Assembly (NCBI GenBank): GCA_000934665.2
Contig: KZ538057.1
Span: 1 to 64,000 of the forward strand
DNA: 64,000 nucleotides
Direction: 5' to 3'
From: Catajapyx aquilonaris
Taxonomy: Eukaryota
Under the pieces are notes generated by a model. That model had not been told where the DNA came from, did no database searches, and saw nothing but the letters and a program-made list of their open reading frames with translations. Below are positions 1,003-63,958 of this stretch, in pieces. Both the position numbers and the translations under genes were made by a program. Positions within the stretch are counted from its first letter, which is position 1, and every line of letters starts with the position of its first letter.

Positions 1003-4000
1003 TCATGTTGGGTTGTAGGGAAGCACCAAGGATGCTGCTCTCTGTTGGACTGGCAGCCTGACGCTGGAGTGACTTGAAGCGATGGAAGCCCTGCTGAGTG
1101 CCTTCCTCCCACCGCCAAAGGGTATCCACGATCCTCCCCTCTTCATTGGTGAAGGGAGTCCAACCATTCCCGCAGGAAGAGTTGCACTCCCGATGACAAT
1201 GTCTCGGTTCACTGCCAGCTGTTTTTGTGGTGCAGGAGATGCAGGCCTGCTACGTTTCTGCTGCTTGCCTGAAATGTGACAGCTCGGCTTAGCAACTATG
1301 TCGTTTTGAATCATTTTCAACTAAGCACATGAAAACAGCAAGTAAAGGTGGAGGTAAGAATGAACCAAGGTAAAAACCAGGACTCACCACTATTAAAAAT
1401 CACCGAAGCATTCAGAAAGCCAAAGTCGAATGGAAGAAAGTCTTGAATGCTGATTGCAATACTGGTACTGCAAACAAATGTAAGTAAAGCAAAGAGAAAA
1501 TAACAGCTACCACCAAATTAGGAGAAAGCAATTTTGTATTGTGAAACTAAAACTATAAACATAGCGTAAGTTATTTTAATGGTTATTTGTAATGCACAAT
1601 CAAGTTACGGTATTATGCAACACTATGCCATTAGAGTATAACCTGATCCATCATTTTTGCCACACTCCCTTCAGGGTTAATTTAAATTGCAAAAATATTC
1701 TTTATTCTGGAACCCTAAAAATTGCATGATGGACCTGGAAAATGATAGATCGAGGTTTCATTGTGCTAATATGCAAGTTACAGTTGTAAAAAAAAAGTCA
1801 AGAAAAATCGAAGTATAAATTATTATTAATGAAGAGCACAAAATGGTGCAGTCACAGGCAGAAACACAGAAAAAAAAAAAATCACATACTTTACTCAGGC
1901 TGTGAATGATATACTGTAATCCAGATTCTAGCAACTTCAATAGTTAGAACAATTATGCCAGTAGCAAACATCTACATTGGCAGGCATGCACATTCTTTGC
2001 TAGAAACATTGCTAATGAAAACATTTATCAGCTTGCATCTAACCTTATTCAGACTAGCATAATTCAACAAGAGACTATTTCAAGGCCTTACACATGCAAA
2101 ATGATTTGAATATTGGTGTTACCACTATAAGCAAGTTAGTTCTGTAACATGAGCTCCCACTCAAGGCATGAACCATGGGCCAATGGTTTCTAACATGCAT
2201 AAAAAATGGTAATAAAAATGGTCAAGTAATGGGCTTGTTCTAACCTGTAGGTTTCCTTGGCTTTCCCTTCCCCCCCTTGTGTGTCAAAGCGAGAGAAACT
2301 GCCCTCTCCTTGGCAGTCTGCGAAAAGGCCATCCCCTCCTCCCTGTCCCTTTGCACTAAAGCCCTCTCCTCCCTCAGGGCCTCCATCCACCGCTGCTTCT
2401 CTGCTGCAGATCTGCACTGGAACACCATCCACTTGCTACGCTCCTGGCTGTACACCCGCCATCCATGCCTCACCCCACCTGCTACAACTCCTGCTGTTGA
2501 AGAGGAAGCAGGCTTGTGCCCAGCCTCTGGGATGTCCACTACCATGCTGGTGTCTAGATTGATTCTCCCCTTGTAGATGTAGGTATGGCGCTTGAGAAGG
2601 TCCTTCTTGCAGTAGACCAGTTGGTGGTCAAATAGGAAAAGAGTCAGCTCCTTGGTCCACTTCCCAGAGCTCACTTTGCTCACTTCCCCTTGGTGGATCA
2701 GCTGTGAGCTGCGACACAGCAAGCTGTCACCCTGCAAGTGCAATTGCGTTAATATCCTCTCTTCCATGCAAATCACATTCAAGAACAGTCACAAACTTAA
2801 ACTGACCTCCCATCCTTCAACCCCAATCTGCCATGCAGCCAGCTTCTCCAGGCACTCAACCCTCCTTTTCCGCTCATTGATCCTAGCTGCAACCTGCCGC
2901 ATGGACTCGAGTGCCGCAGACACTGGCTGATAGTCTGGGTGATCTGCCTTGGTGTACTTCAGCAGTTCTGCCAGCTGGAGAGGGTACTTGCAGATCTTCT
3001 GCACAGGGGTAAGGAGGAATCCATCCAAGGAGATCTCAATCATCCCTCGCAGCAGGCGGCATGCCTCGAAGAAGTGTTGGTATCGAGGGTCCTCATAAAG
3101 CTCTTGCAAGAGGGACACTGCCCAGGGGTGGTTGTTGCAGTACTCCGAGTAGATCTCAAAGCCCGGACGCTGGAATGAGTTAAATTTTTATCCTGCAGTA
3201 CATGAACCCACATTGATTACGGCTGGTTCAACATGCCTCATTAGTATTGGCACTTACAAATTTGAGAAAGCAGTCCCCAATACACGATTGGTGAGGTTGT
3301 TCCCAATTGACCCACGACTCCAGTGCTGCAAGAAATGCCTTGTGGAACTCATGTAGCTGTTCTACATTGCCAAATATGGTTAAGATTTGCTCTGAAGAAA
3401 ACATGTCTGTCCTGCATTTGGCCTGTCTCACAAAACCCTGTAAAATATAACCAGAATTTAGTACAGGAACCAAATAACTTAAAACAGTGATGCATTACCT
3501 CCACAACATCCTGCAAATTCTTCACAAAGTCTCGCTCAGTGGAAACTATCTCCTTGATGACATTTGACCTGACCTGGTCAGTGGACAACAAAGAAATGCT
3601 CCTCTGCCGCTGGATGCTGGTCTGTACGTTATTCTGTTTAATGGCCTCCAAGCACTCTTCCACTGTTTCTTCTTGACTTACACGCAACTGCAATCATAAG
3701 GTATTACTTTGCAACTTCTGCAGTGATATCCAAGTAACAAGATGTGCACAAGTGATGTTACAGCACTTCGAATGATGTCTCATGTTCAACTCACCCTGAC
3801 AAATGAAGCAGGAAACCACCCCCCTCTGCTTCCCCTGATTCCCCACCACCAGTCACTATCCTGTGAGTCCACCACCTCAATCACATCTCCCACCCGGAAG
3901 GACAGCTCCTCTGGGTCAAGGGTCACATGATGCCAGAGTGCCTCGGCATACATCACCGACCCTTCTTCCAGAGCCTTTGGGACAGAAAGAATTATTAGAT

Positions 4001-7000: not shown

Positions 7001-10000
7001 GCCTACCCACAAGCACGACACTGCCAGAAAAAAAAAAATACCTTTCAGAGACGTCTGGTATTTTTAACCCGAAGAGATGTTGCCTGTATGATGACGGAAA
7101 GAGTATCCAAGAGAAAAGCCATGTGCTGATATTAGTTCCGGTTCTATATTAGAACGCAGGTACTTCCAATGTTGCACAACACCCGATCTTTGCACCTAGT
7201 AAACACCCCCCCTAATCTACTAATCTGCAAACACACCTAGCAGGTGTCCTTTCCTGCACCGCTGATATACCGACGGTCTACATTTTCAAGAGAAGCCGGT
7301 TTCAGCTCCAAAATTTCCATTACGTGATCAAGTTGCAATATTTGGGCCACTCGACTACCAGAGTATCTCTCGAAACGATACTTCCGTTTCCCAGACGCAT
7401 AATTACACACACGTGCCAGAAGTGTCTCGTCCCACATACCGGCAGTCACACACCTTCTGGATGCGCTCCAGAGATTCGTCTCTTGCCCCTATGTCCCTTT
7501 GCCAAACATAGCATCTGAATAAGCACAGAACTTCTCAAGTCCTCCTCCATCGATTCTGGAGAAAGCAAATCGGCATGGTAATCTCACGATTTACTTTCGC
7601 TCGCGTAACAAATCAGCAAGTTCATGGGAATGCAGACATGGATGGTTCCCTAGCAGGCTGGGGAGTACCTGTAGTAGCCCACGTTTAGCAAGAGAACGTG
7701 ACAATGCGTATGCAGCAGGTTTTCTTTAGTGGGCTTACCGCACAGATAACCGTGAACCAGCTCCATACGGTATAACACGCTTCGGTCAAACCACCATGTA
7801 CGACCATAGTTCATCCTAGAAGTGGGTCTATCCAATGTGGACTGATTCCCCCAACACTTTGATAGCGATTGCGACTATAAAGACGCAGCTTGAAAAACAA
7901 CAACAATCTGTATTCCCTCACACGTTTTCTTCGTAAAGACACGCGGCAGGTGCATGAAGCCAGCCTATTAAACCGTGGTTATATGGTAGCAACCTCAGTA
8001 CAAAAGCTGAAGAGCTTCCCCCAGCGTATAACAGCTGTCCAATAGCCAGGGAACCGGAAGTTACACCTCATTTTTTTTTCTTTCAAAAACCACAAGGCGA
8101 CTCTGATTACACCCCCATCCCCACAAGGCTATTACGTGCTCAAATCAGACGATTCCCTATACAAAAATGTGTTGTAACATACCCAAACCCGGCAGTGAAT
8201 ATGGAACTGACCTTTTCCGTAGGCACGACTTATGCTAATTTCAACCGACTTTCCCCTTAAAATCCTCATTCCGCAATCGACCACGTTACGTGCCAATATT
8301 CACGCTATCGGAATTCGCAAAATTTACTTGGATTCAGCCAGCCCTATAATCCGGTTAGTACATTCGCAATATAAGTTTCATATTACGTATTCTTCCACTC
8401 CCTCAAAGGAACTAACCGCCACACAATCCTGGGAATGCGATATTGCGAATCTGCGAATACACCCAACCATGGCCATTACCGGCGGAAGCACTTCCTCAAA
8501 ACTCGCGGGAAAAAACCCGAGAAAATGCCTGGTCACCGCTCTTTTCATTCACACACTTAGCTTATCGCAGGGCATTTCATCAAGCCACATAATCCCACTT
8601 ATAGAGTTTTGCCCATAAATCCTCATCTTAACACCCCGGAAGCAGCTATCCCTCCCCCCCTGTTATTATAATCCCAGATTGTGTCCAGCCGATGCAATTC
8701 GGCCGAATCCCATCTCGTGCTTCGTGAGCGATCGTCCAGATTGTCAGGACTTAAGACTTTCTCTTCCAATCCCGAAATTTCTCCTTCCTTTTTTTTTTTT
8801 AATGCTATTTAGCCAGCGGTCAGCGATGACATGGGAAACGTTCAAAATGGGCGAGGGGAAAGTCACCTGTCAACACTGATCTGATCTCCTGATTTATTAC
8901 AGGCATACGACAGTTTCACTCTCGGAAATATTGTCCGGGGACATGTTTCGCATCCAACAACTTCCCGCAAAACGACCTTGGCCGTCCGCCTCTGACGTCA
9001 TCCAGGTGTGCAAATTAGCTACCGGCCAGTTTCGGATGAGGGAAGTCAATGGCCCACAGAATGAGTCAGCTATGCTCATTATGAGTTTTTCTTCCGCCGG
9101 TACCGAGAATCCTTGATGTCTTAATGACACCCCTGCAAGTTCTGACGTCCGCGCTCACCTTCTTGTAAATCCGCTGGGTATCACTTATCGCATTGTGAAA
9201 GCGGAAGATACCGTGTTCAAACACACCGAAAAGTGCATGTTTCACACTAAATTGTACCGCCGATAATTTAAAAAAAATATAAGGCACTATCTGGCCATTG
9301 TCTTCATACATTCCTAAGAATATTGTTCTCTTCCGGACCACGACAAATTATCTGAACGTACTCAGCCTCTGAGCTTGTGGGCCTTGAGTCCCAATGGTGC
9401 AAGATGGTGGTGGGCCATATCTGCTGGCCCCCTGTGTCCAGGTGGCACAGGGAGGCCAGGGGCAGCTCCCCGAGGTAGGGTGAGAAGTGCCAGCTGTGTC
9501 GCAAGGAGCTTGTTCCTTTGTTCCTGGACCCTTCCCTCAGCCTCATAACTCTCCAAGCCTGCTGAGGATTCCTTTTAGTGCCTATCCAGATTGAAATATA
9601 TTTGGCTCAAAAAGTGGCTGCAATCTCATCCTGCATTGCTATGCCCCAAAAATACCACGCACTTCACTAATCAGCTCAATGTACTGGATATGTAATTTTT
9701 TTTAAATGTATAAGCCACCAACCGAGCCACCAACGGTCTTCTACTCAATTACGCAAGCAAAACCAGTTTCAAATGGCCTTGGTACCAATGCAGAAAAGTA
9801 CGTTGGGTACCTGTCGCCGGATGAGGTTACAGCCAACGCGAGTACATACCAGACGACCGTCAAATCCACTCGATAAATCGTGTCACTATTGAAGTGATGA
9901 GGTCACACTAAACGCGACACGGCCTTCGCTGACCGGACGAAAACACACGCATTATTTAGGCCACACACTAAAAAAAAACTGAAGAGAACCACCCGACACA

Positions 10001-59840: not shown

Positions 59841-62800
59841 TTAAAACTTCTCCTCCTCCAGGCCGTGCTTGAAGAACATCATGTATGGGATGCTGTCTCC
59901 ATTTTCATCACGGTATTCCAGCATGGCTACCATGCCATCGCAGTCAAGGGATTCGCCTGCAACAGAATTGTTACAATTAGTCACTCCTCCAGTATGTGAC
60001 AATCGAGCAATGCTCTTTATCTTGACACTCAATCCGAACACAGATTCTCTGCCAAGCCTCAAAAATCTAATCAGTTTCACAAAGAAAATAGTATTTTGCT
60101 CTCGGAAGCTCTAGGGGTGTTGACGGAGTTTTTTGTTGTTTTGTTTGTGTCATTATCTTGAAGGGATAGAGGCATGGCTTGTGGCATTTTAATTCCTTTA
60201 AGGCCATTTAATTCATATCCGAGTACCAAGTATCATAGGCCCATCATACTGACAACAAATCCTGTGCAGCATGTCATGGCAGCTTGGGATTCTTCCTGAT
60301 ACTACCATTTTACCGTAAGTCAAGGCCCAACAATGCACTTAGGTACTTAAAACATTGATCGATAATGAATACTAAAGTGTCCAATTTCCTGTAACAATTT
60401 CACTTGGTATTATTTTAGGACACAAGACATTCCAGAAAATGTGCAAGTTTCAGAAATGGCCCAACATGTGTGACAGCTGCTATTCAGAGAATTCAGAATT
60501 TTGCATGCATGCTTTCTGCATTTTTTTTTTAAACATACACATACATTTATATCACAAAGTATCCCTGATGATCCAACCCGGTGCAACTCGTTTTTTTCAT
60601 ATAGGTTTCACCCTCTGACCCATGTGATGGCAGAGCGACATATCGTAGTTAGGTAGGGTGCCTTGGCCCCTGTCTTTGGTTACTTTAAGTCATAGTTGGC
60701 ACATAGCGAATCTGGTGGGGGAACACGCCGGAGCAAGACTCCCAAACTGCCAATTCAAATCTAGTAGGCATGGTCCGTTCTCAATTAATAGTAATAATTT
60801 TCATCGCAGTCAGGGTATCCCTCCATGCACTCACTGTAAGAAGCCATCAGGTGGGACTCGAGCAATCCATGTGATAAGGGGGCTAGTTTCCAGACCTGTA
60901 TATATACACACACAACAACTCCTCCGCCATGATCCAACCTATCAGTGTAACCTTGCCAGACTCAACATGTCATCCCAAGGACATAAACCATCTAAATGCA
61001 TGTTGGGAGTAATTTGCCATGAACCCTGTCTATGGGTTAAAATCCTACATCTGTTTCTGTTGGATTACATAAGTGCTTACCATAGGGCTTTGCCAAAATG
61101 GACATACAGGGTGTAAATGAATTCAACCGACAAACTTCTAGGGGTGATAGAGGGGACCAAGACAAACATTTTTGACATAGGAAACCGTGTCCGGAAACGC
61201 CATCTAGAGGGGGTTCATAGACAAGGAACGGGTGCGCTCAGACGCGTCACACGTGAGGCGCTAGGCGAGCGGACTGTTTTGTTGATAGATGGCGCTCGGA
61301 TAGTAACCAACGATGCTATGTGGCATAACGTGGCAACAGCAGAGCCATCTAGCAACTAAAGTCCGCCTCCTAGGAGACGCGCGGATAGTCAACAGCGGTT
61401 CTGTTGTTGCCAGGTTATGGCGTATCGTGTTGTTGTTTACTTACAACGACGCGATACGCCATAACCTGGCAACAACTGCGTGCCATCTATCAACAAAACA
61501 GTCCGCTCGAATTGCGCCTCTCGCGTGACGCGTCTGAGCGCACCCGTTCCTCGTCTATGAACCCCCTCTAGATGGCTTTTCCGGACACGGTTTCCTATGT
61601 CAAAAATGTTTGTCTTGGTCCCCTCTATCACTCCTAGAAGTTTGTCGGTTGAATTCATTTACACCCTGTATAATGAAATCTCCATGTACAAATTACCTCA
61701 CTTGAACAGGCAACGGAGTAAACAGAGGACCCCATCCACAGAACTTACAATTTCAACTTAAGGTAGTAGCACATTCATGGGAGCTCTTCACAAATGTAGA
61801 GGGTGAGGTTACATAAAAATGCCCAATGTTTGATCTTCACACCCGATGGGCAAGTTGGCAGTCAGATCAAAGTGCAACCCTGCCCATCCCACATGACATT
61901 GAATAACATTATGGACAAGATCCAGGGTACAGTAAAAACAATGCCTGAATAACTGACTATTGCTGTGACATTCACTCCTTCAAAAAGATCAAGCCAACCA
62001 ATGAAATCCCTTATGGGGCAAGGGTTTTACTGTAATAATGTTTGTCATCCCTGAAATAGTTAGTGAGGTAGCCCTCTGAACCACAGCCCCTCAATTTTGT
62101 TTTACTGTGCAGTACTCCAACACTTTACCCAGCTCACCTAATGCAAAAATGTCCACTTATTAGTAATATCTCACTTGACAGGGAGACGGGCGCCCACGGA
62201 AGTTAAGGTCCCGGGTTCAATCCCCACCCGGGGTTCCCACCTTCTTTTGTGCAGAGTTGGGCCATCTCTGGCTTCGTTTCGGGTGGCAATTTCCGATAGA
62301 CTAAGCCACCCGGGGGAGTTCACAAAATGACGATTAGAGACATTGCACTTGCACTTTGCACATCCCCTCCCACCCACCCTTGGAGTACACTAATTAAGAT
62401 CTTCTTAAAACTCGCTCCAAAAAATCAAATTCCAATGGTGGTAACCCACCCCCCCTAAGGAGTAGCATAACTCCCCCCGTGGGGTAATGAAAAAAAAAAA
62501 ATGAAAAAAAAAATCTCACTTGACATTCTCATTTGAGTGCATCTCGAAAGTTAACTCCGTGCAATGCAATCGTACATCCAGTGTTCATTATGCATGGCAT
62601 TGTGTGTCCGCATTTTTACCTCATAATGCAAGGTAGGCGTTCGAGGCTTTTACTGTACACATTTCTATTGCATGTTTGAAACCAACAAAACCAAATAAAA
62701 ATATTAATGGTTATGCAGACATGCCTCTGATAGTGACACTTTTCACCTACGCAGCTTTCCAACTGCAACTAATCCTAGACATCCCATACTAACCGGTGAA

Positions 62801-63958
62801 GAACTGCAGGTCCTTAAACCTGCCCAGAAGATCCTTCATGACCTTGTTCATGTTCGACTTGAACTTCTCCACCTCTTCAGGCTTGTCTTCCTGCAGCTTG
62901 TTAACCAGCTTCTTCATGTACTCCTTCAGGTAGGCCGTGTAACCTTTCTTGTCACCAAAGGCAAAGGTCTCCTGGAGTCTGTGGTTGAGGACGATGTCAA
63001 CCCCACTCTCAACAGCCTCATTATTGCCCTCATCAGCTTCTTCTGCAGATGGGTTAGCCCCATCAATCACCACTTCGCCTTGCCTGCGGGTCTCCAGCTG
63101 AAATGTCAGGATCGGATAAGCCAAGCAGTCCACAAAAATGTGTTAGAATGCCTTTTCATCCCGACGCCAAACGGTAAATGGCCTCAGGTTTGAATGCAGA
63201 CAGGTTTATTCTGGCATGTATAGCGTCTGACAAAACAAGTAATAGCTTCTGCCAGTTGTTATGACATGCGAACATGTTCTACAAATTTAAGCAAACTCAC
63301 CTTCCCCTGGACTTCGTACAGGACGTCATCCACAAGCTTCATCTTGTAGGTGTCCGAGAACATCTCGTCACCTGCAAACGCAACCAACATGTTCAATTCC
63401 AATTCCACCTAATTATCCACTAATTTCATGCAATTACGCAGCTGGTAAGACTGTGCGTTTGCCTTTTCCTCCCAAAGCTCCATGAGTGGATGCTCAGGCC
63501 TGAGCACAAACATATTTCTATTGCATGTTGGCATATAGTGGGTCACAGATAATCACCACTAGAGTTTGAACATGCTGTACATGGCCTGGTTAAGCCCCCC
63601 CCCCCNCGGAAGCACATTCATTCCACATAGTGCAATGGATGACTCATACTCGCATGACTCACTAAGGATTTCCCTTCTCAGCTGTACATTACTGAATTTT
63701 TTTTCTAAATTAAAAAAACCCCAATACGTTGCTCCCAACTATTCAGACACGTTCCCTTCATTTGAACCCGTTCAGACTTGATCTGAACCGTGCACAACCC
63801 ATCACTTTTCTTCAATCATGGCCACAAACTCATCCCCAAATTTCAACTCAATATTTCGTCCCCTCCGACCCGTTTTCACCCCGTACAATGTGGTATCGCC
63901 TGAAAGCCCGTATCGAGTAGTCGCACTCACCGGTGAATATGTCCTTGTAGATCCTCAT
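59841..63958 (-). CDS. TCTP: Translationally controlled tumor protein (172 aa)
   Basis: Exons 63931-63958, 63301-63371, 62794-63097, 59841-59956. Motifs MRIYKDIFTGDEMFSD, GANPSAEE, ESGVDIVLNHRLQET, LQFFTGES and FFKHGLEEEKF. Confidence 0.97.
60583..60905. repeat. Interspersed repeat copy B (similar to 52621-53010)
   Basis: Shares the same ordered sequence blocks as copy A. Confidence 0.75.
61107..61668. mobile_element. Young mariner-type foldback MITE (562 bp) in TCTP intron 3
   Basis: TA|CAGGGTGTAAATGAATTCAACCGAC termini with TA on both sides, near-identical ~185-bp inverted arms, and an internal hairpin at 61403-61476. Confidence 0.92.
62180..62390 (+). mobile_element. tRNA-derived SINE fragment
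   Basis: AAGGTCCCGGGTTCAATCCC B-box region similar to that at ~43850. Boundaries approximate. Confidence 0.5.
62598..62725 (-). ncRNA. Candidate box H/ACA snoRNA in TCTP intron 3
   Basis: Hairpin GCATGTCTG...CAAACATGC, H box ATAGAA (62663-62668), a second hairpin, then ACA+3 nt (62601-62603); 128 nt. Confidence 0.5.
63136..63270 (-). ncRNA. Candidate box H/ACA snoRNA in TCTP intron 2
   Basis: Hairpin GCATGT...ACATGC with a pocket 14 nt from H box AGAATA (63207-63212), a second hairpin, then ACA near 63140. G-U pairs favour the minus strand. Confidence 0.6.
63449..63576 (-). ncRNA. Candidate box H/ACA snoRNA in TCTP intron 1
   Basis: Hairpin GCATGTT...AACATGC with a pocket 14 nt from H box ATAGAA (63516-63521), a second hairpin TGTTTG...CAAACG, then ACA+3 nt (63452-63454); 128 nt. 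Confidence 0.65.

Follow-up and report, generated by a model that had tools for sequence, protein, structure and literature searches.

Clusters of intronic box H/ACA small nucleolar RNAs (snoRNAs) were reportedly described in Drosophila by Huang et al. in 2004 and 2005. Here we examined a window of 64,000 nucleotides (nt) from Catajapyx aquilonaris (assembly GCA_000934665.2, contig KZ538057.1, positions 1 to 64,000), which ends in a TCTP gene with a candidate H/ACA unit in each of its three introns (i1, i2 and i3). TCTP is a highly expressed housekeeping gene of the terminal oligopyrimidine (TOP) type. Among described systems, a passage of PMC5932544 places related H/ACA snoRNAs in successive introns of a single Drosophila host gene. 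For vertebrates, an entry in PMC3766210 gives TPT1 as the host of SNORA31 (ACA31), with 18S U218 and 28S U3713 as its targets, and a section of PMC2653536 assigns two snoRNAs of the ACA31 type to introns 5 and 6 of a single chicken host gene, which may or may not be TPT1. Our search of the literature on TCTP and snoRNAs, the coverage of which ended short of the host tables of Huang et al. 2005, found no arthropod snoRNA hosted by TCTP; in the passages that came up, two Drosophila Tctp papers mention snoRNAs in other contexts.

The arrangement in the window resembles the Drosophila clusters in that the units are related to one another, lie one per intron on the sense strand and share a single host gene transcribed by RNA polymerase II. 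It differs from them in that the host is TCTP and that no Rfam family, whether derived from Drosophila or not, reaches its threshold on the units. With SNORA31 in vertebrate TPT1 the units have in common their location in introns of a TCTP orthologue, which is a shared host and no shown homology; SNORA31 gave no match within 62560-63620 with the E limit relaxed to 10, nor did it attain its gathering score anywhere in the 64 kb. The basal stem and hinge of the units also resemble the consensus of SNORA15 (RF00398), with GCAUGG...CCAUGC before an A-rich hinge, and that of SNORA14 (RF00397), with GCAUUC...GAAUGC followed by uAuagaAA. However, the SNORA14 match to i1 reaches 19 bits against a gathering score of 36 and covers hairpin 1 only, no SNORA15 match is listed for the window units, and the pockets differ from those of both families. 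The units are thus of an ordinary kind, in a family that Rfam does not cover. We consider it likely that all three are genuine intron-encoded box H/ACA snoRNA genes, paralogs that arose by duplication within the TCTP gene. Established here are their architecture, their intronic position on the sense strand, their single-copy state, their paralogy, and their homology, with structure-preserving changes, to units in other TCTP loci.

Each TCTP intron carries one unit of 128-135 nt, made of a hairpin, an H box, a second hairpin and an ACA, and all three units are on the sense strand (Table 1). This is where a preliminary description of the window, made from the letters alone, had placed them. All three open with GCAUGU, and ACAUGC closes stem 1 about 45 nt further on, immediately followed by the ANANNA box; the same opening and closing sequences had been pointed out before. 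The H box (ANANNA) falls in the hinge between two predicted hairpins in every unit, and an ACA follows hairpin 2 in every unit, in i2 at a distance of 5 nt beyond the stem. The spacing given earlier, 54-57 nt to the H box and 60-64 nt from there to ACA, holds in part: the H box is preceded by 55 (i1), 58 (i2) and 57 (i3) nt, and the gap to ACA is 61 (i1), 63 (i2) and 55-59 (i3) nt, so that i2 exceeds the first range by one nucleotide and i3 falls short of the second. Units i1 and i2 end about 80 and about 40 nt before the 3' splice sites of introns 1 and 2, respectively, and i3 starts 67 nt inside intron 3.

The units are similar to one another as well as to a common plan. The 16-mer AACATGCAATAGAAAT has two exact copies in the window, one in i1 and one in i3 (with up to three mismatches there are 3 matches in the window versus 1.23 expected), and the hairpin 2 motif CCUGAG...GGGA(G/U)GAAAAGGCA is common to i1 and i2. 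Both shared elements had been listed in the preliminary description, which had taken the units for duplicated and diverged paralogs; pairwise alignment and cross-species covariance models, which link all of the units, bear this out. When local alignment scores were compared with those of 1000 dinucleotide shuffles, i1-i2 (z 6.7) and i1-i3 (z 5.4) were reached by none, while the score of i2-i3 (z 3.2) was reached by 17. In a sensitive blastn search of the window each unit finds its two siblings as the best non-self matches, at E of about 0.02, although with i2 as the query an unrelated site ties with them. The mutual similarity of the units appears to be real but modest. Their copy number was read from DNA run X1, one contig of which spans 62518-63599 without differences at a depth of 34.3, in the range of the unique flanks (30-36.5); two other stretches of intron 3 (61069-61632 and 62056-62478) reach 1e5 to 3e5. 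The covariance models R1 and R2 described below find no additional copies in the 64-kb window. By k-mer depth the units are therefore single-copy and no high-copy repeat, in contrast to the many genome-wide copies that, according to the preliminary description, would have indicated a transposon.

The strongest evidence is comparative. A protein-guided scan of metagenome contigs yielded 32 TCTP loci, 19 of them intron-less (cDNA-like, that is, resembling complementary DNA) and 13 genomic (L066-L078). Searched against the 13 genomic loci by blastn, the units gave three matches at E <1, none of them within a sense-strand TCTP intron. When the loci were scanned for the stem together with the H box, one match each came up in three related contigs, L070, L071 and L073, the TCTP of which is 78-82% identical to that of the window over 65 residues. 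All three matches are in TCTP intron 2, with GCAUGU 45 nt 5' of ACAUGC-U-AUAGCA. Homology was detected only through this motif and through covariance models. The three units have textbook two-hairpin H/ACA folds (two were folded, with z -5.9 and -5.1 and 0/200 shuffles as stable). Among the three contigs, identity in 40-nt windows is 0.93, 1.00 and 0.85 over the unit versus about 0.6-0.9 around it, and the units thus appear somewhat better conserved than the flanking intron.

Covariance model R1 was built solely from the L070, L071 and L073 units and was run over the full window on both strands with filters off. Among its 13 matches at E up to 10 (E-values from a shortened calibration), the first three are the TCTP units: i2 (63139-63270, minus strand, 22.6 bits, E 0.008), i3 (62598-62725, minus strand, 20.1 bits, E 0.028) and i1 (63447-63576, minus strand, 16.9 bits, E 0.15); the fourth match in the window has 12.4 bits. 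The reciprocal model R2, made only of window sequences aligned by R1 and searched against 75.8 kb of TCTP loci, matched L073 (63.3 bits), L070 (60.5 bits) and L071 (60.4 bits) at E 5e-10 to 2e-9. It is because of these comparative results that the units stand clearly above chance. With the three window rows aligned to the structure of the other species, an alignment that is fitted to the model and so favours the structure, 96.6% of 58 cells are paired versus 82.8 +/- 4.2 in shuffles (0/500 reach this value), and 8 of 26 pairs show double-sided changes versus 3.6 +/- 1.3 (1/500). Sliding the partners by 1-3 columns reduces pairing to 26-47%. A 9-row alignment, which includes two antisense self-hits and an extra L071 unit, was left out of these counts. 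The comparison of TCTP introns among relatives that the preliminary description had suggested, with covariation in view, gave in part what was sought: 3 of the 13 genomic loci carry a homologous unit and eight pairs change on both sides, and the basal stem of hairpin 1 does not vary. This GCAUGU/ACAUGC stem is identical in i1 to i3, in the three homologous units of Table 1 (L070, L071 and L073) and in the extra L071 unit (8525-8662). In a helix with a structural role only, such invariance would be odd, and it hints at a constraint that is sequence-specific.

Table 1. Coordinates of the candidate H/ACA units, of their homologs in other TCTP loci and of the TCTP host gene
Feature	Position	Strand	Remarks
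Unit i1	63576-63449 (128 nt)	-	intron 1; H box AUAGAA 63521-63516; ACA 63454-63452
Unit i2	63270-63136 (135 nt)	-	intron 2; H box AGAAUA 63212-63207; ACA 63143-63141 or 63141-63139
Unit i3	62725-62598 (128 nt)	-	intron 3; H box AUAGAA 62668-62663; three overlapping ACA 62607-62601
Homologous unit, L070	4643-4765		TCTP intron 2; H box AUAGCA
Homologous unit, L071	2438-2558		TCTP intron 2; H box AUAGCA
Homologous unit, L073	397-517		TCTP intron 2; H box AUAGCA
TCTP coding sequence (host gene)	59841..63957	-	ATG 63957; stop 59843-59841; four exons; final 4 kb of window
TCTP exon 1 (coding part)	63957-63931	-	
TCTP intron 1	63930-63372	-	inferred from GT..AG and reading frame only
TCTP exon 2	63371-63301	-	
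TCTP intron 2	63300-63098	-	203 nt; confirmed by spliced contig
TCTP exon 3	63097-62794	-	
TCTP intron 3	62793-59957	-	2837 nt; confirmed by spliced contig
TCTP exon 4	59956-59844	-	stop codon next

The host gene is readily recognized. The Pfam domain TCTP (PF00838) is found in exon 3 (E 7.6e-31) and exon 4 (E 3.6e-08), and a search with exon 3 returned 856 homologues, the top named ones being insect TCTPs at 77-78% identity; a few metatranscriptome proteins match at 80-82%. These matches, which contain no close named relative, point to an arthropod and probably a hexapod. Introns 2 and 3 are confirmed because a spliced TCTP contig of the RNA-like run X5, at a depth of 3707, bridges both (junctions 63097 to 63301 and 59955 to 62793).

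We also examined the folds of the individual units. With each half folded on its own, hairpin 1 shows a clean succession of stem, internal loop and stem in all three units, at -14 to -18 kcal/mol and with z -2.9 to -3.8 against mononucleotide shuffles (z of whole units refers to dinucleotide shuffles). Hairpin 1 of i1 has the basal stem GCAUGUU/AACAUGC (-15.2 kcal/mol, z -2.9), and its hairpin 2, with the basal stem GUUUGU/GCAAAC (-18.3 kcal/mol, z -1.6), was graded acceptable. In i2 the basal stems are GCAUGU/ACAUGC for hairpin 1 and UGUCU/AGGCA for hairpin 2, the latter hairpin being graded good (-21.4 kcal/mol) in spite of an unusual 5-nt tail, UUCUA, between its basal stem and ACA; the whole unit folds at -39.6 kcal/mol (z -3.23), and 1/200 shuffles is as stable. 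Hairpin 1 of i3 again has GCAUGU/ACAUGC (-14.0 kcal/mol, z -2.9). Its hairpin 2 is weak, with an upper stem GCCUCG/UGAGGU, a basal stem of only 4 base pairs (bp), GUGU/ACAC, and ACA at 62603-62601, and the two-hairpin fold of i3 is seen only with the halves folded separately. The two-hairpin fold expected by the preliminary description is accordingly good in i2, acceptable in i1, and in the second half of i3 no better than in shuffled sequence. Under these predicted folds i1 and i2 look intact; i3 appears to be the weakest unit and, because its 3' hairpin is poor, may be decaying.

Several results weigh against the units being functional snoRNA genes. Hairpin 2 of i3, at -7.6 to -10.5 kcal/mol and z +0.5 to -0.6, equals shuffled sequence. 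As whole units, i1 (z -0.68) is matched in stability by 49/200 shuffles and i3 (z -1.77) by 11/200. A loose H/ACA descriptor, which asks for basal and upper stems of 4 bp or more, pocket strands of 3-10 nt and a spacing of 13-16 nt to the box, matches the window at 52 plus-strand and 56 minus-strand ACA sites; it catches i1 and i3, and i2 escapes it because hairpin 2 of that unit has a basal stem ending 5 nt short of ACA. Being this unspecific, and with i2 missed, the descriptor was discarded as evidence. A search of the whole window against Rfam, which the preliminary description had recommended, returned no family at gathering score, and the top matches near the units do not exceed 19 bits, the value of the SNORA14-like match on hairpin 1 of i1. 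The E-values of R1 are individually modest, and the basal stem of hairpin 1, with 6/6 pairs invariant and zero covariation support, contributes nothing to the covariation because it never varies. Five sequencing runs are listed, none of them recorded as RNA. Contigs of run X5 contain spliced TCTP messenger RNA (mRNA) and some low-depth intron pieces and cover neither i1 nor i3, which is uninformative on expression. Taken alone, the intrinsic evidence is only moderate.

The predicted pockets speak for the units by their distance from the boxes, 14-16 nt in 4/6 hairpins (and in hairpin 2 of i3 as well when ACA is taken at 62603), whereas the target scan described below weighs against them. We derived the pockets from the folds, with distances to the boxes counted manually. 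In i1, hairpin 1 offers CAAACUC / UAUGCC at 14 nt from the H box (target context GGCAUA-UN-GAGUUUG) and hairpin 2 offers GCUCAGG / AGGAAAAG at 16 nt from ACA (CUUUUCCU-UN-CCUGAGC). The pockets of i2 are CAUAACAA(C) / (G)ACGCUAU in hairpin 1, at 15 nt from the H box (AUAGCGU(C)-UN-(G)UUGUUAUG), and GCAUUCAAA / AUGAAA(AG) (AUGAAAAG) in hairpin 2, at 16 nt from ACA (CUUUUCAU-UN-UUUGAAU(GC)). For i3, hairpin 1 gives CUGCAU(AA) / U(U)UCAA (UUGAA-UN-UAUGCAG), with a distance to the H box of just 11-13 nt as long as the upper stem stays closed, and hairpin 2 gives ACAGUAAAA / AAAAAUGCGG at 14 nt to the ACA at 62603 (CCGCAUUUUU-UN-UUUUACUGU). Three of these contexts are the same as those predicted earlier, and three pockets are further ones. 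Pocket sequences vary from one paralog to the next, and those of the L070-type unit are different again.

As proxies for the targets we used ribosomal RNA (rRNA) of other eukaryotes, namely 18 Rfam-annotated rRNA pieces from 8 eukaryote ribosomal DNA loci that contaminate prokaryote assemblies. The set comprises the arthropod-like loci L028 (complete) and L009 (partial), plant-like, fungal and protist units, and two partial large-subunit (LSU) sequences. With fixed pockets no convincing canonical target was found in these proxies, the matches being at chance level only: in 2/18 tests of a pocket against a proxy set the best match was reached by at most 10/200 shuffled pockets (i1 hairpin 2 on L028, 2/200; i1 hairpin 1 on L009, 7/200), and both of these matches lie in segments that are not conserved across the proxies. 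When all plausible pocket registers were allowed, 27 matches scored at least 10.5 and none was convincing. A 12-13 bp LSU match of i3 hairpin 1 in the fungus-like and plant-like proxies requires an upper stem re-registered by 3 bp, and the target position is an A in the arthropod-like proxy; it was rejected. Matches of 7 nt between the 3' pocket strands of i2 and conserved 18S were not used, as the second arm is absent and the length is, by our estimate, expected by chance. At the positions in the proxy rRNAs that we take to be equivalent to the SNORA31 target sites, no window pocket fits by eye. Control pockets from the Rfam consensus of SNORA14 and SNORA35 gave nothing clear against the proxies either.

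The sole working positive control is the extra L071 unit (8525-8662). The top matches of its hairpin 1 pocket, UUAAAUA / CGCUAC, are one conserved and canonical 18S site, UAGCG[UA]UAUU(U/A)AA, in all five small-subunit proxies (5/5). We take this site to be the human 18S pseudouridine pair 649/651; a chicken table in PMC2653536 shows 18S-610 (ACA46) and 18S-612 (ACA20), two nt apart. Because this conserved site is recovered, the target scan works as a method, and because the match is canonical in 5/5 proxies, the family includes a plausible rRNA guide. Since the scan works and the matches of the window pockets are at chance level, the window units appear to lack canonical targeting of the universally conserved rRNA core. 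They may be directed at lineage-specific rRNA segments, at small nuclear RNAs (snRNAs), or at nothing.

An alternative view is that the units descend from H/ACA genes and that some or all of them, above all i3, are now inactive, drifting paralogs that form no stable ribonucleoprotein (RNP) or have lost their guiding function. The shuffled-like hairpin 2 of i3, the short distance of its hairpin 1 pocket from the H box, the odd 5-nt tail of i2 before ACA, pockets that diverge between paralogs and relative to the L070-type unit, and the want of a canonical target in the proxy rRNAs would all fit such decay. Yet the H and ACA boxes are intact in 3/3 units, the structure is maintained through double changes, and with the model from another lineage no other place in the window scores as high as any of the three; the failure to find targets may simply come from the use of proxies instead of the species' own rRNA. 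We regard this view as unlikely. That the layout arose by chance, or is a remnant of miniature inverted-repeat transposable elements (MITEs) or short interspersed elements (SINEs) that mimic it, is a thought that comes easily where the descriptor finds so many sites on either strand, where intron 3 is crowded with high-copy repeats and where the fold z of i1 and i3 is unremarkable. This can be set aside almost completely, given a k-mer depth of 34.3 versus about 1e5 for the repeats, the lack of extra window copies with either R1 or R2, the fact that R1, a model from another lineage, picks exactly these three units, the reciprocal R2 search at E of about 1e-9, and a pairwise similarity that beats 1000/1000 shuffles in 2/3 pairs.

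A different question is whether the units, as H/ACA RNAs, act outside rRNA, either as small Cajal body-specific RNAs (scaRNAs) on snRNAs or as orphan guides or chaperones for mRNA or for the TCTP pre-mRNA. The chance-level rRNA matches are compatible with this, and the GCAUGU/ACAUGC stem, invariant across the paralogs and a distant lineage, suggests a constraint on sequence. We nevertheless consider such a role very improbable: with the folds read by eye, none of the units has the Cajal body (CAB) box of scaRNAs, UGAG, in a predicted terminal loop (in i1 and i2 UGAG is within the predicted upper stem), and the related L071 8525-8662 has a canonical 18S target. A broader and rather speculative version, which we hold to be unlikely, is that the TCTP-linked H/ACA family is old within insects, that its invariant stem points to a sequence-specific reader, and that its pockets turn over fast, leaving several paralogs as true orphans that would serve non-rRNA substrates or TCTP pre-mRNA processing instead of rRNA. 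Genuine snoRNA genes, duplicated within the TCTP gene, remain the reading that we prefer.

Other TCTP loci of the scan contain further candidates. The extra L071 unit was found as an R2 match at 8524-8625 (plus strand, 41.9 bits), on the strand of TCTP and about 1 kb 3' of its stop; SNORA15 of Rfam matches 8525-8662 at 32.2 bits, under its threshold of 47. Two related contigs, L075 (7084-7216, plus strand) and L069 (3310-3390, plus strand), have an H/ACA-like unit about 170 nt 3' of the TCTP stop, weakly related to the window family (R2 about 21 bits, E about 0.06), in which a basal stem ACAUGU/ACAUGU, an H box AGAUCA and an ACA can be made out by eye. In the more distant, arthropod-like L077 (TCTP 66% identity), intron 2 carries both a different H/ACA unit (1778-1914, plus strand; SNORA35-like at 31.8 bits, threshold 39; fold z -5.8) and a sub-threshold SNORD21-like C/D candidate (1557-1630, plus strand, 22.7 bits). 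No convincing unit was seen in the TCTP introns of L066, L067, L068, L072/L074, L076 and L078. Among the arthropods sampled, TCTP loci thus seem to host snoRNAs repeatedly, yet not in every case. In L072 a microRNA (miRNA) cluster (2561-3052, minus strand) is found about 1.3 kb 3' of TCTP on the opposite strand, with mir-12 at 62 bits, above the gathering score of 55, and sub-threshold mir-216-like and mir-3477-like hairpins.

Intron 3 of the window gene also contains two repeats. The stretch 61069-61632 (core 61384-61491) is a long, almost perfect hairpin or inverted repeat with sub-threshold matches to miRNA families (mir-2831 at 40 bits, MIR837, mir-196) and an X1 k-mer depth of 6e4 to 2e5 versus about 34 in unique DNA. 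A MITE-like foldback transposon of high copy number is the most likely explanation, rather than a miRNA gene. A second high-copy element at 62056-62478, with an X1 depth of up to 3e5 and present in X5 contigs too, is adjoined by an A-rich tract (62479-62510, plus strand) and looks SINE-like; ARAGORN made no transfer RNA call there. Just upstream of i1 in the orientation of the gene, a run of C with one N (63607) occupies 63599-63608, and the X1 contigs are interrupted at this run, one covering 62518-63599 and the next starting at 63620. The break is probably an assembly gap at a homopolymer.

The established behaviour of the box H/ACA class suggests how the units would work, and by analogy with it they would be expressed, assembled into RNPs and active as guides. 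RNA polymerase II would transcribe the TCTP pre-mRNA, and dyskerin, Nop10 and Nhp2, together with Naf1, later replaced by Gar1, would load onto each intronic unit. Splicing and debranching would be followed by exonuclease trimming of the lariat down to the protected RNP, leaving an RNA of about 130 nt with its 3' end 3 nt past ACA. The internal loop of a hairpin would then pair with the two substrate segments that flank a uridine, positioning it 14-16 nt from the H or ACA box, and dyskerin would turn this uridine into pseudouridine.

The biological surprise in such genes is small. Their value for annotation is that gene models and scans for intron conservation should mask them. They indicate that TCTP/TPT1 is an H/ACA host gene in arthropods too, besides vertebrates with SNORA31; because homology of the hosted RNAs is not detectable, this may reflect either ancient fidelity to the host or repeated recruitment of a TOP-type housekeeping gene. 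If expressed, the three units would be guide RNAs for pseudouridylation that are unannotated and whose family goes unrecognised by Rfam, and would enlarge the sparse list of snoRNAs from non-model arthropods.

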